Assembly: GCA_964016885.1 (NCBI GenBank)
Contig: OZ024744.1
Location: 37,944,001-38,008,000 of the forward strand
Source of the DNA: Eledone cirrhosa
Taxonomy: Eukaryota
Direction: 5' to 3'
Length of the DNA: 64,000 bases
The position numbers were made by a program, and so were the translations under genes. The stretch's first letter is position 1, and every line of letters starts with the position of its first letter. Shown piece after piece: positions 3,400 to 64,000 of the stretch. The notes under the pieces are model-generated. The model had not been told where the DNA came from, searched no databases, and worked only from the letters and a program-made list of their open reading frames with translations.

Positions 3400-3400
<1 letters not shown>
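1..3400 (-). mobile_element. R4/Dong-type non-LTR retrotransposon, family A, 5'-complete copy running off the window edge; inactivated
   Basis: ORF 500..3238 has RT motifs ([30 protein letters not shown]). Catalytic FMDD is mutated to FMHD. A GGA>TGA stop at ~500-502 interrupts a frame that continues in bases 1-499 with the CCHC knuckle and RPD..VD endonuclease motif seen in the 4235 and 41171 copies. The 5' end abuts (TTA)n at 3401-3440. Confidence 0.9.
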
Positions 3401-3439
<39 letters not shown>

Positions 3440-3440
3440 T

Positions 3441-3952
3441 GCATTATTTGCATTATCTTGCTTTATGTTTATACGAGTTATCACCAAGTCACAACCAGTG
3501 ACCTCAAGAGACAACAAGGTCCGCCATGTTCAAGAAAGAACATACATATTCACACATGCATCCTTAGTGTTTAGACTTGTGATGTACTTATATTGACAGG
3601 ATCTTCCTTAGTATATGGGCAGTTCCCATTAGTACTATCTTTTGTATTTCTCCTATACGCGGGTTTCCTGGGATTTGCGATAAGTAGTCGTTAGAACCCT
3701 TAGGTATCATTCCCAGAGCGCCTACAACCACTGGTATTGTTTTAGTTCTCAATTTCCACATTTTTCCAATTTCTATCTCCAGGTCCTTATACTTGCTCAA
3801 TTTTTCAAATGTTTTTATAGATACATTCTTGTCTATTGGAACGGACATATCAATTAGCAGGCATACCCTCCTTTGAAAGTCCTTCAATATTATATCAGGT
3901 CTATTTGCATCTATTTTTCTGTCTGTTTGGATGCTAAAGTTCCACAAGATTG
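3441..3952 (-). mobile_element. R4/Dong-type family B, 5'-truncated 3' fragment (endonuclease end plus 3' UTR)
   Basis: ORF 3588..3947 (NRPDIILKD...K..KYKDL...IPVVVGALG) and its 3' UTR are nearly identical to 6487-6995; ends in (TAA)n. Confidence 0.9.
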
Positions 3953-4117
3953 CAGCCTCAGATATTCAGGAGGTATCGGAGGGTTCTTGCTGTTCCCAGC
4001 AAGCATGCCTTTTGAAGTGTTCCAAAAAGCGTGTAGAGCCGATTTTCTTTAACCATCCCTGGAAACTTTTGGAGATAGTCCCAGTGCGCCTATGACAATC
4101 GGGATCACTTTGACTTC

Positions 4118-4118
<1 letters not shown>
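3953..4118 (-). mobile_element. Short family A fragment (last ~50 codons) fused to the family B fragment
   Basis: Matches 4230-4398; bounded on the right by (TTA)n at 4119-4160. Confidence 0.8.
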
Positions 4119-4148
<30 letters not shown>

Positions 4149-4160
4149 GTTGTTGTTATT

Positions 4161-6470
4161 CCTTGAATCTCAGTCATTGATGTTGATTAACTGGAAAGTC
4201 CGTTGGAATGAATATCAAGCCACTACCTGCAGCCTCAGATATTCAGGACGTATCGGAGGGTTCTTGCTGTTCCAAGCAAGCATGCCTTTTGAAGCGCTCC
4301 AAAAAGCGTGAAGGGGCCGATTTTCTTTAACCATCCCTGGAAACTTTTGGAGATAGTCCCCAGTGCGCCTATGACAATCGGGTTCACTTTGACTTCATGG
4401 CAGTTCCAAATCCTTTTCACCTCCCACTTTAGGTCCTGGTATCGGTTAATTTTCTCCCTCTCCTTCTCTTGCACTCTCGTGTCGAAAGGGCAGGCCACAT
4501 CCACAATCAGACACGATCCTTTTTCTTTGTCCACAACCACCAGGTCAGGTCTATTGTGTTCCAGTTTCTTGTCCGTCTGTATCCTAAAATCCCACAGCAC
4601 CTTCACCTGATTGTTCTCCATCACCGCCTCTGGCCTATGCTCATACCATTTCTCAGAATGTGGTAAATTGTTTACTTTGCATAGGTGCCAGTGGATCACC
4701 CTGCCCATCACATCATGTCTCCACCCCTTATAGTGAGTCTGGGCTAAGTGTTTACACTCGGATACAATGTGAGCCACAGTCTCCTCTCTCTCTCCACAGA
4801 TCCTGCACAGTGGGCTAGCCTCCTCCTTGTAAATGTGGTGTTTCAACCACTTCGTTTTGAGGGCCTGCTCCTGCGCAGCCATTAACATTCCTTCTGTAGC
4901 CTTTTTAAGGTCTCCTCTTTTCAACCAGTTCCATGTCTGTGGATCTCTAAATTCATTTTTCTCAAAGAAGGTACTATGAAGGGATTTTTCCTGAAGGCTG
5001 CTCTTTCTCCTTGATGTTATTTCCTCCTTGGACATCCCCTGGCCTATTGTCCCCTCCTTCAGTACAGTTCTGAGCATTGGCTCCTTACAATCAGTCACGT
5101 ATTTGTGTAGGTTGTTTTTCTCCATCTGAACACAGTCCTCTATGCTGATAAGACCTCTTCCACCCTCAGATCTCTTTAAGTAGAGTCTATCGACATCACT
5201 CCTCTTGTGGAACATGTTGTAGATAATCAATAGCTTCCTAGTCTTCCTATCCATTTCTTTTTGTTCAGCAACATTCCATCTCAGAATTCCCGCACTGTAC
5301 CTAATAATAGACACAGCTCGGGAATTTACTGCACTTATGGCATTCCTACTGTTCAGATGAGACATTAATACGCTCCTTACTCTCCGAAGGTATTCAGTTC
5401 TTATCAATTCCTTCATCTTTTGTTCTTGATGTCATCAGCCTCCAGAACGCCCAAATACTTGTATCCTTCCTCAGAGTCAATTTCTTTTATCATCTCACCT
5501 GTTGGTATCTGGATTCTGTTACTTCTGCTCAACTTACCCCTCCTCATCACAATGACTCCACACTTACTAATACCAAATTGCTTACATATATCATTGCTGA
5601 AAATACGGACGGTGTCAACAAGCACATCCAACTCCTTCTTACTCTTCCCGAAGAGCTTAAGATCGTCCATGAAGAGGAGGTGATTGATGGTAAGCCCTCC
5701 CTTTCCCAACCTGTATCCTGCTCTCACTTTTCTCAGTACACTGGTCAGGGGCATCAGGGCAAGGACAAACAACAGAGGGGACAGACTATCTCCCTGGAAG
5801 ATACCTCTCTTGATCTTCACGCTTCCCAAGGATTCTCCAGTTGATGTTAACTCTGTTTCCCAGGACTTCATACTTTTGCCCAACAACTGTCTGATGTTAT
5901 CTGCCACTTTGAAGATCTCCAGGCTTTTGGTGATCCAGTGATCCAAGAATGAGGCACCATGTCAAATGCCTTTTTGTAGTCTATCCATCCCATGGCATGA
6001 CCAGTGTGTCTCCTCTTGCAATTCCTCATTACCATCTTATCAATGAGTAACTGGTCCTTTGTACCACGATACTTCTTTCGGCATCCTTTCTGTTCGTCCG
6101 GTAACAAGTTGTTTGTGTGGAGGTGATGGTAGATTTCCTCAGACACAATGCTCGTCAACAGTTTCCACATTACGGACAGACATGTGATAGGTCTATAGTT
6201 GGTAACATCATTACCCTTGATTCGGTCTTTCATTATCAGAACTGTGGTACCTTTTTTCAACCACTCTGGTACCTCACCTGACATCAAGCAGTTATTGAAC
6301 ATGGCCGTCAGCTTCGGGTGGAGGGATGTTATGTTTTTAATCCAATACCCCTGCACACCATCTGGGCCAGGTGATTTCCAGTTGGTTAGTTTTTTGGCCT
6401 GCCCCTTAAGAGTTTCATCTGTGATACTCAAATCAGTTTGTTGGTGTGCCTGTTCACTAATCTCCTTCTG
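4161..6470 (-). pseudogene. R4/Dong-type family A, 5'-truncated, frameshifted copy
   Basis: Overlapping ORFs 5868..6431, 5413..5946 and 4235..5416 together give RT (FMDD), CRIC..H..SEC knuckle, RHD and RPDLVVVD endonuclease motifs. An 8-bp duplication (gtgatcca, ~5930-5946) and a 1-bp loss near 5420 cause the frameshifts. (TTA)n lies on both sides. Confidence 0.92.
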
Positions 6471-6486
6471 TTTTATTATTATTATT

Positions 6487-9400
6487 GCAGTTGCATTTAT
6501 CTTGCTTTATGTTCATACGAGTTATCACCAAGTCACAACCAGTGACCTCAAGAGACAACAAGATCCGCCATGTTCAAGAAAGAACATACATACTCACACA
6601 TGCATCTTTAGGGTTTAGACTTGTGATGTACTTATATTGACAGAATCTTCCTTAGTATATGGGCAGTTCCCATTAGTACTATCTTTTGTATTTCTCCTAT
6701 ACGCGGGTTTCCTGGGATTTGCGATAAGTAATCATTAGACCCCTTAGGTATCATTCCCAGAGCGCCTACAACCACTGGTATTGTTTTAGTTCTCAATTTC
6801 CACATTTTTCCAATTTCTATCTCCAGGTCCTTATACGTGCTCAATTTTTCAAATGTTTTTATAGATACATTCTTGTCTATTGGCACGGACATATCAATTA
6901 GCAGGCATACCCTCTTTTTAAAGTCCTTCAATATTATACCAGGTCTATTTGCATCTATTTTTCGGTCTGTTTGGATGCTAAAGTTCCGCAAGATTGAGAT
7001 TTGATCTTTTTCAAGTATGGGAGGTGGTTGATGTTCCCACCAATTCTTTTCATGGGGCAGGTCAAAATGCTTACACATTATCCAATGTATGTATTGTGCA
7101 GCTCTGTCATGCCTGTTTAGGTATTCGGTTGGAGCTATAGGACTGCACATTGAAATTATATGGTCAATGGTCTCTGGTTGTTTTTTGCATACACGGCATA
7201 ATGGGTTGCATCCATTTTTTATTATGTTGGCTTGGTAATTTTTTGTTGGCTGACACTGATCTTGTGCTGATATAATCAGTCCTTCAGTCTCCGATTTCAG
7301 TCCAGAGGTTGCCAACCACTGATGGGTTAAATTTTTTTCAACATCAGGATTGTTAGCTCGCTCTGGGTATTTTCCATACAGAGGCTTTTCTTCCCATTTC
7401 TTAGCCAGTTTCTGTAGCAGTTCTTTCTTTGCAGTTACTTTTACCTGCTTTGCTTTTTCTGTGTTTTCCATTTCAGCAGTAAATGGGACTTCTGAAATGT
7501 GTAGTCCATTACTGTATCTTTGTGCATCTTTTGTAATGGAATATGATCTTTTGATGCTTTCGTGTTTCAAAACGAGTTTGATCATCCAATCATGTGATTC
7601 CCTTAGATATGTAGATAATCCAATTGTTGCAGTTTTCAACGCAATCTCTAACTGGATTAACCCACGTCCTCCTTCTTTCCTAGGGAGATATATTCTATCT
7701 ATATCTGCCTTAGGGTGATGCATTCTGTGCATGGTTAAGAATTTTCGAATTTTTGTATCGAGCTTACGGATCTCTGTGCTTGACCAGTTGATGACATTGT
7801 AACAGTAGGTTACTACTGGTATGGCAAGCGTGTTTATGGCATCGATCCTATTCCTTGCATTCAATTCCGTTCTTAAGATTGCTCTTACTCTGCGGTAACA
7901 TTCCTTCCTTATCCTTTCCCTCATTGTCGAGTGCTTGATTCCGTCTCCTTCACAAACACCTAGATATTTGTAAGTTTCCTCTTGATCAAGTTCTCTTATC
8001 ACATTCCCCCGATCAAGATTAATGTCTGAACTTTTCAGCAGCTTTCCTCTGGTGAACGTTGCTTTGGCGCATTTATCTAGTCCAAACTCCATTTTAATGT
8101 CATCACTGAACTGCTCCACAGTGGATAATAGCCCTTGCAATTGTTCATCATTTTTTGCAAATAGTTTCAGGTCATCCATGTAGAACAAGTGATTAATGGT
8201 TTTGTCATAGACTTTATATACATGTTTTGTTTCATTGAGCTTTTTACTTAATGGTATAAGTGCGATGCAGAATAAAAGCGGTGATAAAGAGTCACCCTGA
8301 AAAATTCCACAATTAATATTAACTTCTCCAGCTTCCAGTGATTTTGTTTCACTATTCAAAAGGAGTGTCGTTTTCCATGTCTTCATACTGAATGACAAAA
8401 ACCTCCTGACAACGGGGGATATTTTGAAAATCTCTAAACATTTTTCAATCCAACTGTGTGGCAAACTATCGAATGCTTTTTTATAATCTATCCAAGCAAT
8501 CGATAGATTTTTGTGTCTATTATGACAATCTTCCAGTATCATTTTGTTAACCAAAAGCTGCTCCTTACAGCCATATGAGCCTCGTTTACACCCTTTCTGC
8601 TCAATGGGAAATAGGTCATTTGTTATCAGGTGGTCATATGTGTATTCAGTTAGGACTGATGTTAAAATTTTATACATTGTGGTCAAGCAAGTTATCGGTC
8701 TGTAATTTTTGGGATTGTTTGTCTCATCATTCTTCGGAATCAGGAATGTAATGCCGTTAACTAGCCATGATGGTATCTTTTCTGGCTCCTTAACTATTTC
8801 ATTGTAAAGTTGGGCTAACAGCTCATGAGACTCTGTGAAGGCATTTATCCAAAAGTTTTGTATTTTGTCTTTTCCTGGGGATTTCCATTTGCTGGTTTTT
8901 CTTAGAGCCAAGCGCAACTGTTCAACTGTTATATTTTCCCATATGTGTTCCTCAAGGTGAGCTGTATCTTTCATTTGTCTGTCTATCCATGCGGCATGTA
9001 TGTTATGAACTTTTTCTTCGGCCCAGATCTTTTCCCAGAATTCTTGCACTTCCTCCTTGGGTGGTATTGATTTAGCAGTTATTGTTGACTTACCAATTTT
9101 TCTGTAGATGCTTCTTAGGTTGTTTTTGAACATATTGACCTTATAGAATCTAGATCGTTTTTCAAAGCGCCTTATACGAGCAGCTTTGGCCGACACTTTT
9201 TGCTTGATTATTTCTATCAGCATGTCTATGTCGCTTGTTGATTTTATACTATACTTTCTTTTCAATTTTCTAAGTTTAGTTTTTTTAACATGTTCACCTA
9301 CTTTATAGTTTGTTAAAATTTCTATGTCAGATCGGAGAAGGTTTATTTGGCGATTGATGTTCTCTTGCCAAGTAGATTTCTTGTGGGAATTCCTTTGTTT

Positions 9401-10445
9401 TTTTATCTTCACTCCACATAAGTGAGTGGTGACTTTAGCCGATGCATAATAGAGATGATTTAAATCAGTAATGTGTAGTTTGTTTGTGATGATAATGTTT
9501 TTGAGAATTATGTTAGTCTTGTGTATTATCTTTTGGTTCTGTTTGGAGTTCTGGATCTTAGGGAGGGTGTCTCGTTGCCCCATGTCAGATTCTTTCATTT
9601 TCATCCATTCGATCATAATTTCATCCTTCAAGTTGGCAAGTTCATTCTCATTCATTTCTTTATCATTTACGATCTCATTATTTTCATTTGGAGTTTCATC
9701 CTGAGCATGCACTCCCTCCACTTTTTCGATCCTTTCTTTAATTTGTTCTGTTGCCAGTGATTCCGCCCCAACGCTGGGATTCGAAGTGTTACAGTTTACC
9801 TCGTTTTCACTGACACATGTTTCATTTTCCCTTCGCTGACTTTGTGCTAATAGCTTGATCTGATCAATTTCTATATCAGTTAGTAACTTTTTTCTTACAA
9901 TATTTCTTCGTATATTGGCTAGTTTGTTACTGTCAATATAGCCTCTGTTTTCGGGATGTTTCTTTTTCCAGTTGATATATGTCTGTTCTGTATTCGATGT
10001 ATTTGATGGGTAGTACATGGCAGTGTAGAAAGCCTCAAGGACTTCTTTATTATCTTCCCTTGACCATTTTTCTCTCTTTTTCTTTGGATTTCTTGGTGGT
10101 GAGCATGGAGGGCCAACAGTAGGAGTATTCCGGTTATGGGAGGTCTCCAGCTCCGAAGTGATGGGAAGGTTTGAACCATTAGCTGATTTTTCGACCCCAG
10201 TCTGGTTCCTCTCTGAAGGACGCGGCCCTTATTTACCCGAGTGACGGCCGATCCGGTATGAGATTTTATCATTAGACATTTACTTTATTTTGTCGCGTTT
10301 TATCCTTATCCGCCAAGGGGTAATCATTTCGTGTTACCACTTCTAGAACGAGTGTCAAACAAGACTAGAGGGGTCGTTCTCCCCTAGAGACACGGCTATT
10401 CCCCGCCGGCCGCCATCCCGGTATTTCTTGGTCACGGGGTTTTCT
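6487..10445 (-). mobile_element. R4/Dong-type non-LTR retrotransposon, family B, full length
   Basis: 3' UTR 6487-6631 ends in (TAA)n, followed leftward-to-rightward by one long ORF and a GC-rich ~160-nt 5' UTR (10280-10440). Confidence 0.92.
6632..10279 (-). CDS. Family B RT/restriction-like endonuclease polyprotein; the 1128-aa ORF extends in frame to an ATG at 10279 through one premature TAA
   Basis: Motifs KSPGKD, NYRPITCL, WIDYKKAFD, GIFQGDSLSP, FYMDD, CRVC..H..SMC, RHD. The upstream frame reads MSNDKISYRIGRHSGK*GPRP...KWSREDNKEVLEAFYTA-MYYP with a stop at 10229-10231. The endonuclease PD motif is mutated (NRPG here, NRPD in the 3588 fragment). Confidence 0.88.
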
Positions 10446-12019: not shown

Positions 12020-12340
12020 AAATTCTATAATATATATTTCAAGGGTACCAAAACTTTGGTATGCACTCATCAGATAACATACAAAATTTGTTTTATAAAT
12101 AGTGACATACCCAGGAATCAGACCTTAGCGCTTCAGGTTCCGTTTGTATTTTATCTGATGAGAGCGCCCCAAAGTTTTGGTACCCTTGAAATATATATAA
12201 TAGAATAAATATGGTTTTATAAATATAGTTTCCATTTATTAATATCATTGATATTATACTCCAGAAAAATAGTCGAGTGCTTCGAATCTGTTATAAATAT
12301 ATTTGTTGAATTACCAACAAATTAAATATCTGTTTGCCAA
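12020..12340. mobile_element. Non-autonomous Penelope-like pseudo-LTR inverted pair (family H1) with hammerhead motifs
   Basis: 12023-12118 is an inverted partial copy of the plus-strand unit starting at ~12140. Related to the pLTR at 61200-61400. Confidence 0.7.
12147..12207 (+). ncRNA. Type I hammerhead ribozyme (H1)
   Basis: tattttat-CTGATGA-gagcgccccaaagttttggtaccctt-GAAA-tatata-TA-atagaata: stem I pairs, stem II is imperfect, loop III is palindromic. Confidence 0.75.
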
Positions 12341-12626
12341 AACTGGAATTGAAACATCAGCACAGTTGAGGTATGTCAGACATCAATTTATTTTATCTGA
12401 TGAGGACGTACTGATGAAACAGCTCAGTACTTCTGAAATATAAACGACTTAAAGAAATAATAAAATATATTTGATCACATGAATGTCTATATTTATTAAT
12501 ATTTTGAAATAATATATATATATATATTAATATAGAAGAGTTTCTACAGGACTAGAACTGTTTCATACTCTGCTATGTATTGAGTTCCTTACTTACTGTG
12601 GTTACCTCCGATTTAACCCGGAATAA

Positions 12627-12698
<72 letters not shown>

Positions 12699-12702
<4 letters not shown>

Positions 12703-13175
12703 ATTAAATAAATGGAAACTATATTTATAAAACCATAATTATTTTATTATATATATTTCAAGGGCAACCAAGACAACATTGGTACGCTTTCATCAGATAA
12801 AATACAAAGTTTGTTTTATAAATAGAGACGTACCCACGGTTGTTTTTTCAATTATTTACACATTAATTTGCATATTCACACATAAGTTTGAATAATCCCT
12901 AACATGTTTCCACTATCCAGTGAATTTCCGACCGATAAGGTATGATTTTCATGGGTACGTCTCTATTTATAAAACAAACTTTGTATTTTATCTGATGAAA
13001 GCGCACAAATGTTGTCTCGGTTGCCCTTGAAATATATATAATAAAATAAATATGGTTTTATAAATATAGTTTCCATTTATTTAATATCATGGAATATTTA
13101 CTCCAGTAACTTGTTGAGTGCTCTAAATCAGTTATACACATTTACGTTTGTCGGACTTCCAACAAATTAAATACA
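12699..13175. mobile_element. H1 pseudo-LTR inverted pair in (TA)n; hammerheads at 12740-12804 (-) and 12984-13048 (+)
   Basis: Arms ~12699-12836 and ~12952-13090 are reverse complements. Each reads tattttat-CTGATGA-aagcg...ccctt-GAAA-tatata-TA-ataaaata with a perfect 8-bp stem I. Confidence 0.8.
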
Positions 13176-20043: not shown

Positions 20044-20640
<597 letters not shown>

Positions 20641-23651: not shown

Positions 23652-26136
23652 GGAGGTGAGTTTTATTGTAGTACAATAAAGCAATGCAGATATCGGATAA
23701 GAAGCACTCTACAGTTTGTAGGACTGGAGTATACATAATATAAGATCAAAAGATGGTTAAAGGAGTTCCATGTATTTTATTATGCGCATTTCAAAAACAA
23801 ACATCATCATGCAATAATATTTGTGTTTTCATCAGATAAAACAGGAGAACATGATATGAAGGCTAAAAAACACTTGTGGATAGTGCAGTTTTAAATCAAC
23901 ATATGAAAAGTGGTTTTAGATTGATGTGTGATATTGGGAAAAATATTTTATTTAGAGAGGGGGGGGTGGAAAGGATGAAAAAGGGGAGGAGATGAGAGGG
24001 AGAGATGGGTGATAGAGAGAAAGAGATAGTTTTTATAGCTGAGAGGAGATATATTGTTTTACATAGAGAGGTTGAGAACCGTTGGAAGATAATGTATAAA
24101 TTAAAAGAATTTGAAAATTAACGAAGGGAGGGGGGTGCTGGAAAGGATGAAAAAAGGGGGAGGAGATGAGAGTGAAGGTGGAGAGGGAGAGATGGGTGAT
24201 AGAGAGAAAGAGATAGTTTTTATAACTGAGAAAAAGATATATTGCTTTACATAGAGAGGTTGAGAACCGTTGGAAGATAATGTATAAATTAAAGGAATTT
24301 GAAAATTAACGAAGGGAATTTATGTATGAAGATAGAGAGAAAAAATAATAATTGTGGATGAATATTCTAACGTCAAAAAAAGTGTATGTTGATAAGTATT
24401 GTGGCAATTTCAAAATTAACGAAGAGAAAAATTATTAAGGTTTGTGTGTAGAAGGATTTGAGAAAAATAATGTGAAGTTAAAGTTTGTATATTGAAGGAA
24501 TTGATAATATATGCGAATAAAGAGTTAATATGTATTAAGAATGAGTTCGTTGATGGGGAGAAAAAAATAATAAATTAAGGATGAAATTGAGATTAAAAAG
24601 ATTTATGATAGAGAGAAAAAATAATAATGATTGCGGATGAATATTCTAACGTCAAAAAAATAAATGTATATGTTATGAAGGATTTTACAAGGTGAAGATA
24701 GAATGAGGGTAATGAGTAAACAAGTATTATAGAGTGTATAATGCCCTTTAAAGTAAGGTAGGAAGATGGGTATATTTTAAATACAAACTTAAAAGAACCA
24801 ACACTGCTCTCTCAGAACTCATATGGTCCTTAAAAGACAAAAACATTAAATATACCATCTTTTGGAAGAAGGTTTCTTCTGCATCCTCATACTTGAACAG
24901 CTCTCTATCTAAAATCTGTAATCTCTGCCTAAATGAAAAATTTACCATTATCTCTAACCTAGATTCTATAATAAATAGACGTACAGATTTGTTTTCTATC
25001 TGCCTGCATAAATTCCATAGGACTTTTCACAAAGTATACAGTTAATATTCAATTCTTTATCAATTTAGAATCTTTTCTCAAAGACACATATACATACACC
25101 TCTTTAAAATATACCCATCTTCCTACCTTACTTTAAAGGGCATTATACACTCTATAATACTTGTTTACTCATTACCCTCATTCTATCTTCACCTTGTAAA
25201 ATCCTTCATAACATATACATTTATTTTTTTGACGTTAGAATATTCATCCGCAATCATTATTATTTTTTCTCTCTATCATAAATCTTTTTAATCTCAATTT
25301 CATCCTTAATTTATTATTTTTTCTCCCCATCAACGAACTCATTCTTAATACATATTAACTCTTTATTCGCATATATTATCAATTCCTTCAATATACAAAC
25401 TTTAACTTCACATTATTTTTCTCAAATCCTTCTACACACAAACCTTAATAATTTTTCTCTTCGTTAATTTTGAAATTGCCACAATACTTATCAACATACA
25501 CTTTTTTTGACGTTAGAATATTCATCCACAATTATTATTTTTTCTCTCTATCTTCATACATAAATTCCCTTCGTTAATTTTCAAATTCCTTTAATTTATA
25601 CATTATCTTCCAACGGTTCTCAACCTCTCTATGTAAAGCAATATATCTTTTTCTCAGTTATAAAAACTATCTCTTTCTCTCTATCACCCATCTCTCCCTC
25701 TCCACCTTCACTCTCATCTCCTCCCCCTTTTTTCATCCTTTCCAACCCCCCCTTCCCTTCGTTAATTTTCAAATTCTTTTAATTTATACATTATCTTCCA
25801 ACGGTTTTCAACCTCTCTATGTAAAACAATATATCTCCTCTCAGCTATAAAAACTATCTCTTTCTCTCTATCACCCATCTCTCCCTCTCATCTCCTCCCC
25901 TTTTTCATCCTTCCCCCCCCTCTCTAAATAAAATATTTTTCCCAATATCACACATCAATCTAAAACCACTTTTCATATGTTGATTTAAAACTGCACTATC
26001 CACAAGTGTTTTTTAGCCTTCATATCATGTTCTCCTGTTTTATCTGATGAAAACACAAATATTATTGCATGATGATGTTTGTTTTTGAAATGCGCATAAT
26101 AAAATACATGGAACTCCTTTAACCATCTTTTGATCT

Positions 26137-26143
<7 letters not shown>
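23650..26143. mobile_element. Truncated Penelope-like element (H2) with ~1.04-kb inverted arms; hammerheads at 23774-23842 (-) and 26037-26105 (+)
   Basis: Arms 23737-24781 and 25103-26143 are near-identical reverse complements. The spacer encodes on + TNTALSELIWSLKDKNIKY...CNLCLNEKFTII...SICLH, a PLE GIY-YIG C-terminus. (TA)n on both flanks. Confidence 0.88.
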
Positions 26144-26186
<43 letters not shown>

Positions 26187-26190
<4 letters not shown>

Positions 26191-26387
26191 TTAATATAGA
26201 TGAGATTCTACAGGATTAGAACTGTTTCATTCATTTGAAATCATCAGGAATCAGAGATTCCTGATGATTTCAAATGAATGAAACAGTTCTAGTCCTGTAG
26301 AATCTCATCTATATTAAAACTGTTATACTCTGCTATGTATTGAGTACCTTACTTACTGTGGTTACCTCCGATTCAACCCGGAATAAC

Positions 26388-38768: not shown

Positions 38769-38808
<40 letters not shown>

Positions 38809-38810
<2 letters not shown>

Positions 38811-39903
38811 AATTTGAATTGAATGCTCTGAAATAGCGATATATATGTGAAGACAAACACAGAATATTCGAAAATATTCTGTATGTTTATAATAAACATT
38901 TTGAAGACCCAATCGCTATAGAATAGAATACGTCACGTATTACAATTTGAGATTCTCGATAAAAGTAAGGGAAGTAATCTACGCGTTTCATTCTTGTTAG
39001 AAATCTTCAGGATTACATATCCAATACTTTTATCGAGAACGACACAGCTAGAGACTTATAGAATACTTAGCTGTGTACAGGAACTGGTTTGATAGAGCGG
39101 TAGCCGGTCCGGCAGAAATTAGAATTTGAATTTAATGCTCTGAAATAGCGATATATATGTGAAGACAAACACAGAATATTCGAAAATATTCTGTATGTTT
39201 ATAATAAACATTTTGAAGACCCAATCGCTATAGAATAGAATACGTCACGTATTACAATTTGAGATTCTCGATAAAAGTAAGGGAAGTAATCTACGCGTTT
39301 CATTCTTGTTAGAAATCTTCAGGATTACATATCCAATACTTTTATCGAGAACGACACAGCTAGAGACTTATAGAATACTTAGCTGTGTACAGGAACTGGT
39401 TTGATAGAGCGGTAGCCGGTCCGGAAGAAATTAGAATTTGAATTTAATGCTCTGAAATAGCGATATATATGTGAAGACAAACACAGAATATTCGAAAATA
39501 TTCTGTATGTTTATAATAAACATTTTGAAGACCCAATCGCTATAGAATAGAATACGTCACGTATTACAATTTGAGATTCTCGATAAAAATAAGGGAAGTA
39601 ATCTACGCGTTTCATTCTTGTTAGAAATCTTCAGGATTACATATCCAATACTTTTATCGAGAACGACACAGCTAGATACTTATAGAATACTTAGCTGTGT
39701 ACAGGAACTGGTTTGATAGAGCGGTAGCCGGTCCGGCAGAAATTAGAATTTGAATTTAATGCTCTGAAATAGCGATATATATGTGAAGACAAACACAGAA
39801 TATTCGAAAATATATATCGTCTTCACATATATATCGCTATTTCAGAGCATTAAATTCAAATTCTAATTTCTGCCGGACCGGCTACCGCTCTATCAAACCA
39901 GTT
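38809..39903 (-). mobile_element. Retrozyme-like tandem array 1: ~3.2 copies of a 312-bp unit with a terminal inversion
   Basis: Unit starts at 38809, 39121, 39433 and 39745. 39819-39903 is an inverted copy of ~39706-39790. The left end is in (TA)n. No protein homology visible. Confidence 0.85.
38974..39016 (-). ncRNA. Minimal type I hammerhead of array 1 (also 39286-39328 and 39598-39640)
   Basis: gtaatc-CTGAAGA-tttct(aaca)agaat-GAAA-cgcg-TA-gattac: perfect stem I, palindromic CGCG loop III. Confidence 0.85.
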
Positions 39904-41058
39904 ATTTGATGTTATTTGATGTTATTTCCTCCTTGGACATGCCCTGGCCTACTGTCCCCTCCTTCAGTACAGTTCTGAGCATTGGCTCCTTACTATAGGT
40001 CACGTATTTGTATAGGTTGTTTTTCTCCATCTGAACACAGTCCTCTATGCTGATAAGACCTCTTCCACCCTCAGATCTCCTTAGGTAGAGTCTATCGACA
40101 TCACTCCTCTTGTGGAACATGTTGTAGATAGTCAATAGCTTCCTAGTCTTCCTATCCATTTCTTTTTGTTCAGCAACATTCCATCTCAGAATTCCCGCAC
40201 TGTACCTAATAATAGACACAGCTCGGGAATTTACTGCGCTTATGGCATTTCTGCTGTTCAGATGTGACTTCAATACGCTCCTTACTCTCCGAATGTATTC
40301 AGTTCTTAACAATTCTTTCATTTTTTTGTTCTTTATGCCATCAGCCTCCAGAACGCCCAAATACTTGTATCCTTCCTCAGAGTCAATTTCCTTTATCATC
40401 TCACCTGTTGGTATCTGGATCCCGTTACTTCTGCTCAACCTACCCCTCTTCATCACAATGACTCCACATTTACCAATACCAAACTGCATACATATATCAC
40501 TGCTGAAAATACGGACAGTGTCAACAAGCACATCCAACTCCTTCTCACTTTTCCCGAAGAGCTTAAGATCGTCCATGAAGAGGAGGTGATTGATGGTAAG
40601 CTCTCCCCTTCCCAACTTGTATCCTGCTCTCACTTTTCGCAGCATAATGGTCAAGGGCATCAGGGCAAGGACAAACAACAGAGGGGACAGGATGTCTCCC
40701 TGGAAGATACCTCTCTTGATCTTCACGCTTCCCAAGGATACTCCAGTTGATGTCAACTCTGTCTCCCAGGACCCCATACTCCTGCCTAGCAACTGTCTGA
40801 TGTTATCTGCCACCCTGAAGATCTCCAGGCTTTTGGTGATCCAGGAATGAGGCACCATGTCAAATGCCTTTCTGTAGTCTATCCATCCCATGGCAAGATC
40901 AGTGTGTCTCCTCCTGCAATTCCGCATTACCATCTTATCAATAAGCAACTGGTCCTTTGTACCACGTGACTTCTTTCGGCATCCTTTCTGTTCGTCCGGT
41001 AACAAGTTGTTTGTGTGGAGGTGATGGTAGATTTCCTCAGACACAATGCTCGTCAACA
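39904..41058 (-). pseudogene. R4/Dong family A internal RT fragment, truncated at both ends
   Basis: ORF 39902..41059 is near-identical to 623-1764 with FMDD intact. The 3' part is missing where the 312-bp array adjoins; a tgatgttatt duplication marks the junction. Confidence 0.9.
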
Positions 41059-41095
41059 TTATTATTATTATTATTATTATTATTGTTATTGTTAT

Positions 41096-42730
41096 TCCTT
41101 GAATCTCAGTAATTGATGTTGGTTAACTGGAAAGTCCGTTGGATTGAATATCAAGCCACTACCTGCAGCCTCAGATATTCAGGACGTATCGGAGGGTTCT
41201 TGCTGTTCCAAGCAAGCATGCCTTTTGAAGCGTTCCAAAAAGCGTGAAGGGGCCGATTTTCTTTAACCATCCCTGGAAACATTTGGAGATAGTCCCCAGT
41301 GCGCCTATGACAATCGGGATCACTTTGACTTCATGGCAGTTCCAAATCCTTTTCACCTCCCACTTTAGGTCCTGGTATCGGTTAATTTTCTCCCTCTCCT
41401 TCTCTTGCACTCTCGTGTCGAACGGGCAGGCCACATCCACAATCAGGCGCGATCTTTTTTCTTTGTCCACAACCACCAGGTCAGGTCTATTGTGTTCCAG
41501 TTTTTTGTCCGTCTGTATCCTAAAATCCCACAGCACCTTCACCTGATTGTTCTCCATCACCGCCTCTGGCCTATGCTCATACCATTTCTCAGAATGTGGT
41601 AGATTGTTTACTTTGCACAGGTGCCAGTGGATCACCCTGCCCATCACATCGTGTCTCCAGCCCTTATAGTGGGTCTGGGCTAGGTGTTTACACTCGGACA
41701 CAATGTGAGCCACAGTCTCCTCTCTCTCTCCACAGATCCTGCACAGTGGGCTGGCCTCCTCCTTGTAGATATGGTGCTTCAACCACTTCGTTTTGAGGGC
41801 CTGCTCCTGCGCAGCCATTAGCATTCCTTCTGTAGCCTTTTTGAGGTCTCCTCTTCTCAACCAGTTCCATGTCTGTGGATCTCTAAATTCAGTTTTCTCA
41901 AAGAAGGTACTATGAAGGGGTTTTCCTTTAAGGCTGCTCTTCCTCCTTGATGTTATTTCCTCCCTGGACATCCCCTGGCCTACTGTCCCCTCCTTCAGTA
42001 CAGCTCTGAGCATTGGCTCCTTACTATAGGTCACGTATTTGTATAGGTTGTTTTTCTCCATCTGAACACAGTCCTCTATGCTGATAAGACCTCTTCCACC
42101 CTTAGATCTCCTTAGGTAGAGTCTATCGACATCACTCCTCTTGTGGAACATGTTGTAGATAGTCAATAGCTTCCTAGTCTTCCTATCCATTTCTTTCTGT
42201 TCAGCAACATTCCATCTCAGAATTCCCGCACTGTACCTAATAATAGACACAGCTCGGGAATTTACTGCGCTTATGGCATTTCTGCTGTTCAGATGTGACT
42301 TCAATACGCTCCTTACTCTCCGAATGTATTCAGTTCTTAACAATTCCTTCATTTTTTTGTTCTTTATGCCATCAGCCTCCAGAACGTCCAAATACTTGTA
42401 TCCTTCCTCAGAGTCAATTTCCTTTATCATCTCACCTGTTGGTATCTGGATCCCGTTACTTCTGCTCAACCTACCCCTCTTCATCACAATGACTCCACAT
42501 TTACCAATACCAAACTGCATACATATATCACTGCTGAAAATACGGACAGTGTCAACAAGCACATCCAACTCCTTCTCACTTTTCCCGAAGAGCTTAAGAT
42601 CGTCCATGAAGAGGAGGTGATTGATGGTAAGCTCTCCCCTTCCCAACTTGTATCCTGCTCTCACTTTTCGCAGCATAATGGTCAAGGGCATCAGGGCAAG
42701 GACAAACAACAGAGGGGACAGGCTATCTCC
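41096..42730 (-). mobile_element. R4/Dong family A 5'-truncated copy with an intact C-terminal ORF (41171..42709) and 3' UTR
   Basis: FMDD, CRIC..H..SEC, RHD, RPDLVVVD..VDV. (TTA)n tracts at 41059-41095 and 42731-42766. Confidence 0.92.
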
Positions 42731-42779
42731 TATTATTATTATTATTATTGTTACTATTATTATTACTTTTTTTCTTCTT

Positions 42780-45760
42780 TTCCCAATTCAATGATGTTCC
42801 AAAACAATATAAAAGAGATAATTGGCAATAAGGGCAGGGGCCCCAGGTTATCACAGCCTGGGCCTGCTCGTCATCGTGCCACTGTAATAGAGTCAAACAA
42901 GGCATTTAGTCATGGCTGCTGGAACGTACGGACGCTGCTTGACAGGGATTCATTGGAACGTCCTGAACGAAGGACCGCTCTTGTTGCAAAGGAGCTTCGA
43001 CGTTACGATCTTGACATCGTAGCTTTATCTGAGATGAGGTTAGCTGGAGATGGTCATCTTACAGAATTTTGTGGTGAATATACATTCTTCTGGAAAGGAA
43101 GAGATGAAGTAACCAGAAGAGAGGCTGGGGTAGGATTTGCTGTTAAGACTGTTCTTGTGAATAAATTAGAATTCCCAGTGGGGATTAGTGAGCGTCTTAT
43201 GTCCATGAGAATTCCGCTGGACAAAGGAAGATATGCGACCCTGGTGAGTGTGTATGCTCCAACTATGAATTCTGTCGATGAAGAAAAAGTGTCCTTTTAC
43301 CATGCCTTGAAAGGTGTTTTAAGAAATATCCCTCAGGCAGACAAAGTCATTGTGCTTGGTGACTTTAATGCTAGAGTGGGTAGGGATTTTAACACATGGA
43401 ATGTAATCGGAAGGCATGGGATGGGAAAGTGTAACAACAATGGTATGCTCTTGCTGCAGATGTGTGATCCTGCATCTAAGGAATGGCATCTTTTGGACTA
43501 CGTCCTAGTCAGGATGCGTGAGAGACGGGATGTGCAGTTTGTTCGTGCTCTTCGTGGAGCTGAGTACTGGACGGACCACCGCCTGGTACGCGTAAAAGTG
43601 AAACTAATCACTAAACGTAAAATCCGGGCTCCTGGTGTTACCCTGCCCAGAAGATTGAATGCTGCTCGTCTTAGGGATAAAAATGTGAAGAGGACATTGC
43701 GAGAAGAGATGCAGGTTGCAGATTTTGGTGAGGATTGGCCGACCCTTAAAAAGTCGGTTTATGATGTAGACAGGCGTGTTCTGGGATTGGTGCAGATAAA
43801 ACATCAAGACTGGTTTAATGAGAATTATGAACATATAGAAGACTTTTGGGCTGATAAGAGGCGTGCTCTGTCACGCTACTTGACGGCAAAACCACAGGAG
43901 AAGAATATGTTGCATACTGTGAAAGTAGCTCTCGCAGAACCTCCGACGCTTGAGGAGGTTGCAGTGGCTATCTCGAAGCTGAACAGTGGAAAGTCTCTAG
44001 GTATGGTGGCATACATTCAGAGCTCCTACAATATGGTGGTAAGATACTCCTGCAACATCTTCACTCTTTGTTTGGCAGGATATGGGCTAATAAATCCGTA
44101 CCTGAGGACTGGAGAGATGCAGTAATGATGGTCTTGTACAAGGGAAAGAGTAACAGGAATGATTGTGGGAACTACAGAGGTATATCATTGCTTTCTGTCG
44201 TATGGAAAGTTTATGTAGGTTGCTTCTGGACCGTCTGCTGACACACATTGCAGATTGTGTTCTTACTGAATGTCAATCTGGTTTTCGTGCTGGACGCGGC
44301 ACTACTAATATGATCTTCTCAGCTAGACAGCTCCAGGAGAAGTGCATGGAATAAGGTTTGGATCTGTATCAGGTTTCTGTCGATCTCACAAAAGCTTTCG
44401 ATAATGTCAACAGAAATGCATTATGGAAGGTTCTCCAGGAACTTGGTTGCCCTGATAAGTTCCTTGCTTTAGTTAGGTCTTTCCATGACGATATGAAGGC
44501 TTGGGTTAATGTCGGAGGTAACATGTCAGAGCCTATCTCAGTAAAAAATGGAGTGAAAAAGGGGGATATTCCAGCACCGACCCTGTTTGCCATATACATT
44601 GCAATGGTTTTCTATATTGCCTTCAGGAATTGCGAGCATGGTGTTTACATCCGATATCGAACCTCAGGCAGCATACTTAACATCAGGCGCTTTGCTGCAA
44701 AAACAAAAGTATTTACATCAATCATAAGAGACCTCTTGTAGGCAGATGATTGCGATCTTGTAGCGCACACAGAGAGTGATATGCAGCACATTTTGAATGA
44801 ATTTTCTGATGCTTGCACTGTCAGTCTCAAGAAAACCGTCGTCATGTACCAACCTGCCCTTGGTAAGCAGAACAGTGAACCAAATATCTATGTGTATGGT
44901 AAACGACTTGGAGTGGTTGATCAGTTTGTCTACCTGGGAAGCACTGTCAATCGATACAGCAACCTTGATAATGAAATCCCACTCAGGATTAGGAAAGCAA
45001 GTGTTGCTTTGGGAAAGCTAGAAAGGCGACTCTGGGGTCGGCGAGACATATGCAAGAACATGGTTTGGATCTGTATCAGGTTTGGATCTGTAAAGGTGTA
45101 CAAGGCATGTGTGCTCTCTTCTCTTCTTTATGCCTCCGAAACCTAGGTCACATATCGACACCACCTTACGCAATTGGAGCGTTTCCATCAGAAATGTTTC
45201 AGACGGATCCATGGCGTTCACTGGAGGGACCACGTCAGTGATGTCGAGATTTTAGAAAGCTCTATGTGTGACAGTATAGAAGCTCTTGTGCTTAAGCAAC
45301 GACTCCGTTGGAGTGGTCACCTTGCCAGGATGAAGGATTCTAGAATACCAAAACAACTCTTTTATGGAGAGTTAGTTAAAGGAAAACGACCGCCACATAA
45401 ACCAAAAAAGAGGTATAAGGATTCTTTGAAAGCCTCTTTGAAAAACGCTAACATCTCTGCTGATACATGGGAAAATATTGCTGCTGATCGTAATAAATGC
45501 AGAAAGACTGTATATGAGGGAAAAGTTGCCTTTGAGGCATCTCGAATCACATACGAGAAAGTAAAGCGGGATGTGAGGAAGGGCATTGCTGTTGCACTTC
45601 CAGTCGGCGTAGGTCCACCTATGGCGCTGACATGCAGCGTCTGTGCGAGACTCTGCCTAAGCAAAGCAGGACTCGAAAGTCATTTTCGCAGTTGTAGTGA
45701 CTAGCGCCATATCTCCGGGAAACCAAACTATTCGGAGTTACTTCGCCGTGGCCAGTATAT
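42780..45760 (+). pseudogene. Decayed RTE (BovB-like) LINE: APE endonuclease, RT and C-terminal C2H2-like motif
   Basis: CWNVRTLLD, ALSE.R, LGDFNARVG, LDYVLV, WTDHRLV; QSGFRAGRGT, VDLTKAFD, GVK.GD..APTLF. YADD is broken by TAG at 44739-44741. LRWSGHLARM..RIPKQLFYGEL; CSVC..LCLSKAGLESH. Several stops, frameshifts and deletions. Confidence 0.92.
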
Positions 45761-57372: not shown

Positions 57373-57433
57373 TATATATATATATATATATACGATATTA
57401 AATAAATGGAAACTATATTTATAAAACCATATT

Positions 57434-57499
57434 TATTTCATTATATATATTTCAGGGATATCATATTAAAAATATGTTATGCCTTCCTCAGACAAAATA
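57434..57499 (-). ncRNA. Hammerhead ribozyme in the downstream pLTR
   Basis: tattttgt-CTGAGGA-aggcataacatatt(ttt)aatatgatatccct-GAAA-tatata-TA-atgaaata. Confidence 0.8.
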
Positions 57500-57782
57500 C
57501 AATATAAACAGTCTTATAAATAGATAGATTCGACATACCTTTCAACATCGACTTCAATTTGAAAAGTTGAATTGGTAGTGGAAAAAATATATTAGGGACA
57601 GTTATAAAAAGAAAGAAAGAAAAAAGAAAAAACGGAGAAAAAGAAGAAATGCATGCAACTAAATAGAGAGAGATAGATATAGAGAGATAGATAGAGAGAA
57701 GAAATCCATGTAAAGAAACAGAGAGAGATATATAGAGAGAGGAAAAAACATAGAGGGAGATAGATAGAGAGAGAGAGAGAAG

Positions 57783-57838
<56 letters not shown>

Positions 57839-58936
57839 GAGAGAGAGAAAATATAGAGAGATAGATATAGATAGAGATAGAGAGAAAGAAAATAGGTAGT
57901 TGTGCACCAGTTGAATGACGTATCAATGATATATTTATTTATTTATTTATTTATTTATTTAGCTCTAGTATCAATGTAGAGAGAGATATATGTGGTTAAG
58001 AGAGAAAACAGCCGTTACATAGAGAGAAAAGAAAAAGAAAAATATCCAGACAAAAACGAGGCAGATTTAAAACACTATGTATCATCAATGTAAAAAATAT
58101 CAATTCGTATAAAACAGGCATTATAATGTAAATATCAGTATTCATGAATGAGACACGTATCAATAAAGTGTGAAAAATAATGATCATATGTCTAGTTTAA
58201 AATTCATAGGTTTATATTAGAAGGTTATCCCAGATTTTATACTATATACATCATGTGAATTTACGTGATCAGCTCTGCAAATTCCTATTTCACACGAAAA
58301 CATTCTCATTGTGCTATAAAAATTCTAGTATACATATATGTGTACATACACACAAATATATATAGAGTCTACATTAATTTTAACCATACTATTCATGTCT
58401 TTACTCTACATGATTAGCGTTCAAGCATAAATAGAGAACAGATATCAATATATTAATAAAAATAAAAATATCAGAAACAAAAAGTAAATAAAAAACAAAA
58501 ATCAAAAAAATAAATAAATAAAAATCAAAAAAATATTAAAAATAAAACTAAAAATATTAAAAATATAAAAAATATTAAAATAAAAATGAAACATAGTATG
58601 CCCCGCAAATCAACCACAGAGATCAGCCCTTCAAAGTTAATTGACAATATATTGCCAAGTTCGTTATAAGCATCAGAATCAAAAGCAAACAAAACCAAAA
58701 TTATTTACCAAATCCTGTCTAGCAGAAAACATTCCAAAAGTTTAGGATACCCATTTGATCTACAGATGGTCTTATATTTAATATAGAAGTTTATCTAGTG
58801 TAAAATGTATTCGATATATTTGGAGCATCAGCTTTTAGGGTAGTTTAATTATTCATGAAGAATGTTTAAAAAATAAAAAGGAATCGAAAGATTTATCGGC
58901 GAGTTTCATAAATAATTATAAATCAAATTAAATATA

Positions 58937-61152
58937 CTACATTTTAAATTTATATTTATATTTAAAAGTTGAGTTCAAACTATGTCTGCAGCAACTGAAT
59001 AAATTTGTCCGTAAATTAAGGGAATTTTTAGATTTTAGTATAAAGAATATCTCCTCCGCGCAGAGGTCTCAGAGGATGAATTAAAAGGAATCCCTCTTGA
59101 GACTATATTCCAAGCCGTTGAATATCCAACGTTATCATGCCTAAGTTGCCAGAGTAGGCCTGATAGTGATGTTGAGGATTTTTTGCTTGGATCTGTGAAA
59201 GAATTCTTGTGGTTATTATAGCGAAGTTTAAATTCTGTTGAGGTGGAACCAACATAATTAAAAGAATTTAAGTCCGTTTTAACATTACAGTTGTATATTA
59301 TATTTTTAACTAAGCAATTGTTATTTAACGGACATTTAGATCTATCTCTACAGTTACATTTGTTAACTTGGATATTATTTATGCTATTATCGGTATTTTG
59401 GCTAGGTTTTAAATTCCTATTATTTATTCTATTAATATTTTGTGCTAAATGTTTGGTGGATGAGTAGGTTAATGTTATAGTATGTCTATTGAAAATTGAG
59501 TGATACCTATGTGTTCTAGGGAAGCGATTATCAAGAGCATTAAAAAATAGTTTAGCGATGTGGGTTTTAATGTTTAGTGAGAAAGGGGGGGCAAACCATA
59601 TTATATTCCTAGTTCTATTTCTTTTTTGGCTTTTGGAATTATTGTAATGCTTTTTATTATAGTTGTTAAAGTTGTTGCCGTAATTAAAATTGTTGTTATT
59701 TTGGTTAGTTTGTCTATTATTATCTATGTATATAATTTTATCACTATATCCTGCTCTAGCTAACGCTTCATTGTAATACTGGGCTTTTTCGTCGAAAATC
59801 TTTTTATTAGATGAGATTCTAGAGATACGATTTTGAACAGAGTTTACTATAGTATTTTTAACAGATCTGGGGTGGTTAGAGTTAAAGCTGACATAGTTTA
59901 AGTTTTCATTCAACTTGTGAAATGGATAGTGAAGACATGTGTTGAGATTTAATGTTACATCTAGGAAATTGACTATTCTATGGTTATTCTCAATTTCTAT
60001 TTTTAGATTAAAGTAATTAAAAAATTGTGTAATTTGTTTTCTTTTTCTATTTAGTTCAGAGTTATTATTTTCAATAAGTAAAAGCATGTCATCTCTATAT
60101 AAACCTCCGGTAGCACCGGGTATTTTCCTATGCAGCGAATTGATTAAAAATAGGCCCACAAGGTCAGTTACCTGAGCTGAGTCGGATGATCCCATAGTAA
60201 TGTCGAAATTGTTATCTCTATCTGCTCTGGTCCATAGTTGGTCATTAAATTCTATCAATGTTTTCCTAGCCGATAATATAATGTGCATTTCATTGCTAGT
60301 TAGGTCTGTATGTTTGAATGCGTAAATTAGTGCCTTATTTAGTAGATTAGGGGTAATAGATGAATAATAGTTAGCGATATCTAGTTGAATAAACTTATTA
60401 TTATTGTTATATTTAATTTCTTTAAACCACTCAACAACCTCTCCAGTTCCCTTCCACAAGCTCAAGTTAGGTACACAATTCAAGTTTTTAATTTGCTGTA
60501 TCACCCTGTCTAGAATGTTTTTGCTTAGTTTACCCAGGTCAGATTTTGATGGTGCAATCAATCTGACTGGCAGGTCATTTTCAAAATTACTTTTGTGATC
60601 TTTCATATTGATCTTCGGTTTCCTGGGCACGAAAGGTTGTGTTCTGTTCTCAATTTCCAACTCATGCATTATACAAGATGCCTCAACATTCAATTTCTCA
60701 AGCTCGGCCTTATCTGCTACCTTGTACTTTTTCCTCAGTTCTTTCAGTATGATGCCATTATACATGTCTTTTTGCACTCCATAGAGGTTGTTGGTCTTGT
60801 CAGATTTCACCAAGATCTTCTCAGTTTTCTCTAAGCTCTCAATATTATCCTTAATGCCTTTCAGATATTCCTGGCCTTTGAAGTTTCTCTTGAATTTGAC
60901 TCCTTGTATGATAGAAATTATATCGTTTTCAAAGTCAAATAAAAGTTTGTTGGGGGGTGGATTTCTTTTAGATTTGAAAACTTTGTCTAAGTCCGAGACA
61001 TTTTCATTTATATTAGATTTATCAAAGTGGAATGCACGCCACCTGATTCTCCTTATAAAAGAGTCAGATTTATCTATTAATTGTTTAATAAAGTCTTTGT
61101 TTCTAGGTAGAGGTATGTCTTTTAAAGAGGAAGAAATCTTAAAGAATTCCAT
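58937..61152 (-). CDS. PLE RT plus C-terminal GIY-YIG endonuclease (probably Hydra clade), frameshifted near 59070
   Basis: QLDIANYYSSI, ITMGSSDSAQVTDLVG, LYRDD, NFLDVTL, CNCRDRSKCPL, IIY..NYVGST..FKLRYNNH. The shifted frame gives DLCAEEIFFIL...FSCCRH and a stop at 58937-58939. Confidence 0.88.
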
Positions 61153-61331
61153 TTTTTCAGTTATAATATAAAGCGCTCAACAGTATTGGAGCAAGATATA
61201 TGCAAAGTTTTATTTAAATTGTTGGGTTAACAACGAGTAAATATTTATAACTGATATAAAAGCACTCAACAAGTATTTGGAGTATATGTACGATATTAAA
61301 TAAATGGAAACTATATTTATAAAACCATATT

Positions 61332-61397
61332 TATTTCATTATATATATTTCAGGGATATCATATTAAAAATATGTTATGCCTTCCTCAGACAAAATA
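61332..61397 (-). ncRNA. Hammerhead ribozyme in the upstream pLTR
   Basis: Identical to 57434-57499; lies ~180 nt upstream of the ORF start. Confidence 0.8.
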
Positions 61398-62325
61398 CAA
61401 TATAAACAGTCTTATAAATAGATAGATTCGACATACCTTTCAACATCGACTTCAATTTGAAAAGTTGAATTGGTAGTGGAAAAAATATATTAGGGACAGT
61501 TATAAAAGGAAAGAAAGAAAAAAGAAAAAACGGAGAAAAAGAAGAAATGCATGCAACTAAATAGAGAGAGATAGATATAGAGAGATAGATAGAGAGAAGA
61601 AATTCATGTAAAGAAACAGAGAGAGATATATAGAGAGAGGAAAAAACATAGAGGGAGATAGATAGAGAGAGAGAGAGAAGAGAGGAGAGAGAGAGAGAGA
61701 GAAAATATAGAGACATAGATATAGATAGAGATAGAGAGAAAGAAAATAGGTAGTTGTGCACCAGTTGAATGACGTATCAATGATATATTTATTTATTTAT
61801 TTATTTATTTATTTAGCTCTAGTATCAATGTAGAGAGAGATATATGTGGTTAAGAGAGAAAACAGCCGTTACATAGAGAGAAAAGAAAAAGAAAAATATC
61901 CAGACAAAAACGAGGCAGATTTAAAACACTATGTATCATCAATGTAAAAAATATCAATTCGTATAAAACAGGCATTATAATGTAAATATCAGTATTCATG
62001 AATGAGACACGTATCAATAAAGTGTGAAAAATAATGATCATATGTCTAGTTTAAAATTCATAGGTTTATATTAGAAGGTTATCCCAGATTTTATACTATA
62101 TACATCATGTGAATTTACGTGATCAGCTCTGCAAATTCCTATTTCACACGAAAACATTCTCATTGTGCTATAAAAATTCTAGTATACATATATGTGTACA
62201 TACACACAAATATATATAGAGTCTACATTAATTTTAACCATACTATTCATGTCTTTACTCTACATGATTATCGTTCAAGCATAAATAGAGAACAGATATC
62301 AATATATTAATAAAAATAAAAATAT

Positions 62326-62374
<49 letters not shown>

Positions 62375-62815
62375 AATTTCAGTACAGCATCAGCGAAGCT
62401 TTTGGTAGCAGCCAAGCTAACGAATGCGGTTTCGGTGTGCAGCTAAGCACACAATGGAGAATATTACCCCAGCCTTATAACATTACGTTTAGACAGCTTT
62501 GCAAATCAAATAAAGCGACCAATAGACGGGCCGCAGAGACCATAGCGACGAAAAAAACTGAACTCAGGAAGAATGTTTGACTGGTATATATATATATAAA
62601 TATAAATATAAAATTAGCGACAATCGCATTTCGGCGGGTAGAATTGGCGGAGCGCAACTTTTGTATTATGCAGACAAGTTCTACATGGCTACAAAGATAC
62701 CAGAGCTATAAACATAAGTTAAAAAGGTCATACAAACTGAGACGCTGGTTAAGAAGCCATTAACCACCTTAGCCAAAAAAGCGAACAAGCTAAACGGGTC
62801 AAACAAAATAAGATA

Positions 62816-64000
<1,185 letters not shown>

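Follow-up and report, generated by a model that had tools for sequence, protein, structure and literature searches.

To establish how two short tandem arrays came to lie in a 64,000-nt stretch of the Eledone cirrhosa genome (contig OZ024744.1; hereafter the window), we asked whether their units represent independent insertions of an element with a structured RNA or a passive satellite, and, if they were inserted, what kind of template was copied. A preliminary description had favoured two independent insertions of an RNA-structured replicon under selection, and had cited a double compensatory change in an outer stem as support.

Two arrays of a hammerhead-bearing unit

The minus strand of the units carries a type I hammerhead motif, with core and stems present in all six units of the window, in the order 6-bp stem I, CUGANGA, short stem II, GAAA, a single A-U pair that closes on a palindromic CGCG loop, and GUA. 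The core heptamer is CUGAAGA in array 1 and CUGAUGA in array 2, a change at N7. Unit positions are counted from the predicted cleavage site on this strand; positions past 30 are 2 lower in the 310-nt majority unit than in the 312-nt unit, and the ends of the window arrays are given in 312-nt numbering. The Rfam model HH9 scores 20–21 bits on the units (cut-off 52 bits), and at gathering thresholds Rfam returned no match; miRNA-like Rfam matches at 39722–39888 were rejected, as they only reflect the 85-bp hairpin of array 1. The predicted folds of the units are more stable than those of all 100 shuffled sequences (z of −5.6 and −4.4). Their hammerhead geometry agrees with that described for canonical metazoan hammerheads, a form said to act as a dimer (PMC4209133; PMC7229834). 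The low Rfam score counts against an active ribozyme, as does a preprint in which, of 9 Xenopus retrozyme dimers assayed in vitro, 8 are reported to have failed to cleave (bioRxiv 10.64898/2026.07.22.740005). Excess variation at the ligation site was looked for in 79 arrays, and the changes seen there were limited to A2G and an inserted C in 3 of them. By these features, arrays 1 and 2 belong to a non-LTR retrozyme family that is non-coding (no stop-free frame of at least 120 aa occurs within either array), has (TA)n junctions at its ends and no LTRs, and is predicted to self-cleave.

Table 1. Features of the two arrays and their surroundings (window coordinates; strand “.” where none applies)
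Feature	Position	Strand	Detail
(TA)n target of array 1	38771..38805	.	(TA)19 microsatellite at the RNA-3′ (tail) end
Array 1, main arm	about 38806..39813	-	3.2 head-to-tail retrozyme units, period 312
Outer stem	38952..39040	-	16 bp, enclosing the ribozyme domain; arms 39025–39040 and 38952–38967
Hammerhead motif, array 1 unit 1	38974..39016	-	predicted cleavage between 38980 and 38979
Hammerhead motif, array 1 unit 2	39286..39328	-	predicted cleavage 39292/39291
Hammerhead motif, array 1 unit 3	39598..39640	-	predicted cleavage 39604/39603
Filler	39814..39818	.	5 nt, at the inversion point of array 1
Inverted stub of array 1	39819..39903	+	85 bp, unit positions 126–210
Tandem duplication	39904..39927	.	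10 bp of the neighbour's sequence at the array 1 junction
Non-LTR retrotransposon RT fragment	39916..41058	-	RVT_1; adjoins array 1
Penelope-like element	57385..62327	-	direct repeats 61283–62327 and 57385–58473, both carrying a minimal hammerhead
(TA)n target of array 2	62813..63002	.
Array 2, tail arm	about 63002..64000	-	period 310; outer end at unit position 166

The main arm of array 1 ends on its outer side at unit position 172–174, the tail start site, and on its inner side at 103. It is followed by an inversion with a perfect arm pair (39706–39790 and 39819–39903, spacer 28 nt), which the preliminary description had likened to Penelope-type insertions; the inversion is real, but it is not the second arm typical of the family. 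The stub runs past both start sites and stops at neither canonical site. The adjoining RT fragment, which we take to be R4-like, lacks its downstream part at the junction, and we infer that the 10-bp duplication beside the stub is an end-joining scar. The stub is either an end-joined fold-back or a second arm shortened by later deletion. Non-canonical ends of this kind occur in 8 of the 142 two-armed arrays of the family described below, several with short arms on unique flanks. Array 2 (locus L043) extends beyond the window, with a tail arm of 1,340 bp in total followed by a 943-bp inverted arm that stops at the short site in (TA)n. Array 2 is the typical case of the family. Array 1 belongs to an older and rare subfamily, and its own second arm is only a stub. 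The earlier remark that both arrays end within a few nucleotides of the same unit position fits the left ends (174 in array 1, 166 in array 2); the right end of array 1 is neither in (TA)n nor canonical. Each array was also said to be homogeneous and distinct from the other. The units of array 2 are indeed identical, whereas those of array 1 vary at a few sites, and an alignment of the two arrays shows 20 differing columns, of which 18 are substitutions and the rest a 2-nt indel.

The window also contains a cluster of non-LTR retrotransposon copies near (TAA)n tracts (500–10228 and 39916–42787, minus strand), one of which retains a 1,198-aa open frame at 6632–10228. Two further hammerhead repeat families, with periods of 466 and 467 bp and an ACUAGU stem III, are represented at 23396 (+) and 54189 (+) and at loci L048 and L045; the 466-bp family ends about 126 and 150–170 nt past its cleavage site, resembling the retrozyme.

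Variation in the predicted RNA fold

The changes named in the preliminary description are all present: the outer-stem pair 264/14 is U264-A14 in array 1 (window 39026/38966 in unit 1) and C-G in array 2, the stem I pair is A277-U3 in array 1 and G·U in array 2, and the core heptamer differs as above. We judged covariation by pair counts and a parsimony count. Among 74 pairs over 164 arrays, 52 are invariant, 17 show one-sided changes that keep the pair and 5 are broken somewhere; the only two-sided change is at 264/14. On a tree built from 48 haplotypes the swap arose once, in a single step, and shares its branch with T197A, a change unrelated to it. The chance that 18 differences would strike both partners of some pair is 0.22, and for the 3–4 changes on the 264/14 branch it is 0.005–0.009, which makes the swap not negligible. 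Genome-wide, however, this pair occurs as U-A in 64 units, as U·G in 7 and as C·A in 38, and the C·A mismatch fills a whole two-armed insertion (L223). Since the C·A form was transposed as a whole insertion, the pair is not essential. The single compensatory pair is by itself weak evidence for selection on the fold, and many of the “conservative” A-U to G·U changes may reflect A>G editing instead of selection.

Evidence of another kind for selection came from comparing variants common to at least two arrays with within-array minority variants. Structure was defined by the hammerhead geometry and the helices of the predicted folds, and was fixed after the variants of the first set had been seen; the fresh set is therefore the fair test. 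Disruptive variants made up 3 of 39 shared and 121 of 322 within-array variants overall (p = 1e−4); the fresh set gave 3 of 28 against 47 of 132 (p = 0.012). Since an A>G change in an A-U pair can never break it, but turns it into G·U, we also removed the A/G changes, which left 2 of 22 shared against 98 of 261 within-array variants (p = 0.009); of 21 non-A/G shared sites, 4 lie at structured positions, where 52% would be expected to do so. The catalytic core has no shared variants and 10 within-array variants. Under this model of the structure, transmitted variants seldom break it, supporting the view that the fold is under selection. A T>C excess within arrays, considered as a sign of wobble errors by the reverse transcriptase, was significant in the first set (33 against 11 A>G, p = 0.009) and not in the fresh one (18 against 9, p = 0.25), and this explanation was dropped.

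Insertion ends, clonality and probable editing in the family

Exact hammerhead cores number 9,503 in the 3.0-Gb assembly (control 0). Matches to the TA junctions on the forward strand comprise 1,082 tail and 995 short ends, from which we estimate roughly 2,000 arrays genome-wide; forward-strand counts were used as those of the reverse strand are inflated by overlapping matches. We mapped 183 arrays, excluding redundant overlapping loci and loci with Penelope-like elements (PLEs) only. The 171 complete arrays have a median of 4.4 units and a maximum of 28.5. Unit length is 308–312 nt in 460 full units.

Of the complete arrays, 142 are two-armed, with the RNA 3′ ends facing outward. One “short” and one “tail” end are found in 134 of these, and no array has a pair of like ends. 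The two sites lie 25–33 nt apart on the unit: the short site, at about 139, is an internal AU run that merges with the (TA)n target, and the tail site falls at 155–174, mostly 164–172. The 3′ ends run into TA in 281 of 313 cases, a rate inflated by the choice of most loci by one TA junction; among loci chosen by the tail end alone, the far end is short in 63 of 67, and loci from the first core search, picked regardless of their ends (L031–L042), are mostly two-armed too. The tail arm is the longer in 67 of 133 arrays and the short arm in 66; given this near equality, one arm was not copied from the other. PLEs are described as carrying an inverted truncated partner copy and a 30–40-bp tail at one end (PMC8557442), and a purified PLE as nicking and extending both strands, with two internal start sites bounding the tail (PMC11167929). 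The paired short and tail ends in (TA)n match these descriptions and are the Penelope signature. This insertion anatomy is a stronger result than the compensatory pair. The junctions together with the depletion of disruptive variants uphold the earlier conclusion of independent insertions of an RNA-structured element under selection, although the evidence then cited for it is its weakest part; “replicon”, in the sense of RNA-to-RNA replication, finds no support here.

Taken together, these data argue, with good though not complete confidence, that a non-coding 310–312-nt retrozyme has been inserted into (TA)n as clonal, mostly two-armed arrays, probably written by a Penelope-like reverse transcriptase circling one monomer RNA. 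The circling of one monomer is proposed on the geometry above, the clonality of arrays and two individual cases, one array providing the case for hyper-editing (L146) and one pair that for a source and its daughter (L223 and an array on contig C1).

Alternatively, the machinery of PLEs might insert short linear monomers or dimers, which would later expand in situ into arrays through unequal crossover or slippage. A preprint argues for this course, an origin from PLEs followed by amplification on the spot (bioRxiv 10.64898/2026.07.22.740005), and local DNA amplification does occur in a minority of arrays: repeated variants are present in 12 of 127, a 48-unit mosaic array on contig C1 (L219–L222, 217.795–217.810 Mb) has higher-order duplications, and a block on contig C14 likewise shows real local amplification. 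As an account of the arrays in general, however, growth in place is unlikely. Within-array minority variants are mostly singletons (254, against 20 repeated), and arms of 19–22 units carry only 0–2 differences. The two arms agree in 71 of the 72 arrays with at least two copies per arm, whereas random pairs of arrays are identical in 4%. Private and edited haplotypes are common to both inverted arms, across the cleavage site. Moreover, the longest arrays are found in the youngest subfamily (median 7.8 units at a within-array divergence of 0.056%, against 2.5 units at 0.42%). The former value is that of the array 2 type (104 arrays) and the latter that of the U-A clade to which array 1 belongs (20 arrays), which by this measure is the older; it is also rare, with 64 U-A units against the 9,503 cores.

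The sole array with disagreeing arms (L081:976–4994) does so at one site, position 276. Here four outer units of one arm have A, while its two inner units and the entire opposite arm have G, so that the base switches part of the way along the array. The C14 block (L224–L228, 25.02–25.30 Mb) is a higher-order satellite with units of about 6 kb made of decayed retrozyme pieces and TA tracts.

The template could also have been an uncleaved linear multimer transcribed from a homogeneous source array, with no circle and the hammerhead incidental. PLE insertion in vitro is reported to have used unprocessed RNA and required no hammerhead cleavage (PMC11167929), and some haplotypes are common to many arrays (24 and 20 of 164). 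The array L146:387–2780 (contig C1, about 380.305 Mb) speaks against such a template. Measured from the nearest haplotype, 14 of its 14 private changes are A>G on the hammerhead strand, present in all 7–9 copies and in both arms, and none lies inside the ribozyme domain (0 of 14, post hoc P = 0.006). Clustered, strand-specific A>G changes are a known mark of ADAR editing, and L146 is likely a hyper-edited RNA fixed in the genome. A genome-wide search with a degenerate pattern found this haplotype at that locus alone (9 of 10 matches), though an unassembled source is conceivable. A linear multimer would not receive identical edits in every unit; therefore one monomer was recopied across its own cleavage site in both arms. 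Similarly, the unit type G14A+C210A occurs eight times, never adjacent, in the mosaic C1 array, from which we infer that L223, clonal and fixed for it in every unit, descends. With the catalytic core free of shared variants beside its 10 within-array ones, we regard a linear multimer as very unlikely.

Outside L146, A>G exceeds T>C by 23 to 12 events (p = 0.017), or 13 to 8 when counted by sites (p = 0.13), a modest excess. Two further arrays, L068 and L058, have C210A together with G14, which would fit, among other routes, an A·C mismatch edited back to a pair.

That the family is a passive satellite of hairpin-rich DNA, its inversions and paired change arising by DNA fold-back or template switching, is scarcely tenable: the sub-threshold Rfam score, the C14 satellite block and the presumed capacity of a perfect 16-bp stem to transfer a change between its arms could be cited for it, but it is largely refuted by the junction counts, which point to some 2,000 arrays scattered over the genome and ending at two fixed sites, and the strand-specific A>G cluster and the depletion of disruptive variants also oppose it, supporting instead a family of dispersed independent insertions in (TA)n.

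Penelope-like elements, proposed route and known systems

The retrozyme unit carries no reading frame for RT plus GIY-YIG and is not an autonomous PLE. The PLE of the window has a 713-aa frame (59035–61176) between its hammerhead-bearing direct repeats. Pfam and PDB searches gave no match for this frame, and the features of the PLEs match GIY-YIG/HTH_animal clusters. Intact PLEs are present in the genome, with 104 of 104 scored matches at 93–100% identity and many frames of 745–750 aa. In the family of the window PLE the ends lie near +49 and +140 relative to the cleavage site; this gives a tail of some 90 nt, as in one other family, compared with 25–33 nt in the retrozyme and 30–40 bp in published elements. 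We found no sequence similarity of the PLEs to the retrozyme unit, and no terminal sequence shared with an autonomous partner among 133 other hammerhead-like matches in 1.16 Mb of loci. By its sequence, the window element may serve as an example of the type of helper present, and is a candidate partner at most.

At some loci other sequence adjoins the retrozyme: a PLE end is joined directly to a retrozyme 5′ end in L058 (4754–5460), a PLE coding fragment of 143 nt occurs in L021/L121 (L121:323–471), and pieces of 115–270 nt lie at retrozyme 5′ ends or between arms in L123, L042 and L122. These captured pieces were considered as a clue to the partner, but the others are non-PLE or without identification, and we claim no partner from them. 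Many short inverted PLE-type insertions with minimal hammerheads lie between (TA)n tracts in the window (12155–13090, 20230–20586 and 23730–26260), and several have, by eye, a GAGYRYT-like motif 20–25 nt past the short end that is also seen in the retrozyme.

We propose that arrays would be transcribed and their hammerheads would cut as dimers via the palindromic stem III, yielding monomers that could be circularised and at times A-to-I edited. A PLE protein would nick both strands of a (TA)n tract and prime on the same RNA once at unit position ~131–141 and once at ~164–174; each cDNA might then circle its template many times, before the two cDNA ends were joined, in many cases through a short microhomology or at a stem of the RNA itself, with the 3′ ends left facing outward. 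A minority of arrays would later amplify locally as DNA. A bolder form of this proposal, towards which we lean only slightly, holds that one 310-nt ribozyme circle is primed twice by the Penelope-like enzyme, once per nick, and written into the germ line over as many as ~28 turns, that ADAR edits written in every repeat feed the evolution of the family, and that some stem “compensation” (C·A to C-G) stems from editing and not from selection.

Hammerhead “satellites” were first seen in newts over 30 years ago, and two routes of entry have been put forward, reverse transcription of circles in one paper and local amplification after PLE insertion in a 2026 preprint. A young family that keeps its insertion scars offers a direct genomic test, which favours the one-monomer, twin-primed rolling-circle route. 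Our data support twin-primed rolling-circle reverse transcription of one monomer RNA family-wide, a model that had been proposed before and that we did not find demonstrated in the literature searched; a search by title and abstract, mostly outside subscription journals, returned no report of the two-site anatomy, clonality or editing imprint of a retrozyme. With exact start sites and the target named, the reaction could be rebuilt in vitro, and the likely fixation of an RNA-editing event warns against reading A-U to G·U changes as selection.

The twin priming of L1 likewise starts from two nicks in the target, and the cDNAs primed there are joined so as to leave an inversion. The L1 cDNAs cover different parts of a linear RNA, whereas those of the retrozyme start within ~30 nt of one another and copy the same unit many times. 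Non-LTR retrozymes of animals are an established class for which a circular template and a PLE helper have been proposed (PMC7229834). They too consist of tandem non-coding units of 170–400 nt with a type I hammerhead, in thousands of copies and co-occurring with PLEs (PMC7229834; bioRxiv 10.64898/2026.07.22.740005); the stem III of one base pair and a palindromic tetraloop is as in axolotl HHR_Amex1, and stem II has a U·U at its base, like that of HHR_Amex2 (PMC7229834). Compared by description, the main texts of these reports do not present two-armed outward arrays, paired short and tail ends, insertion into (TA)n, clonality of single arrays or a trace of editing in the genome. With GIY-YIG Penelope-like elements, as described (PMC8557442, PMC11167929, PMC4209133), the retrozyme shares the inverted 5′-truncated partner, a tail of comparable kind at one end only (30–40 bp in those elements), microsatellite or AT-rich targets and a hammerhead upstream of the RT start sites. 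It differs from them in having no reading frame, in that each of its two arms repeats a single short unit several times, and in its start sites, which lie ~135 and ~167 nt past the cleavage site, the short site being itself a stretch of (AU)n continuous with the target.
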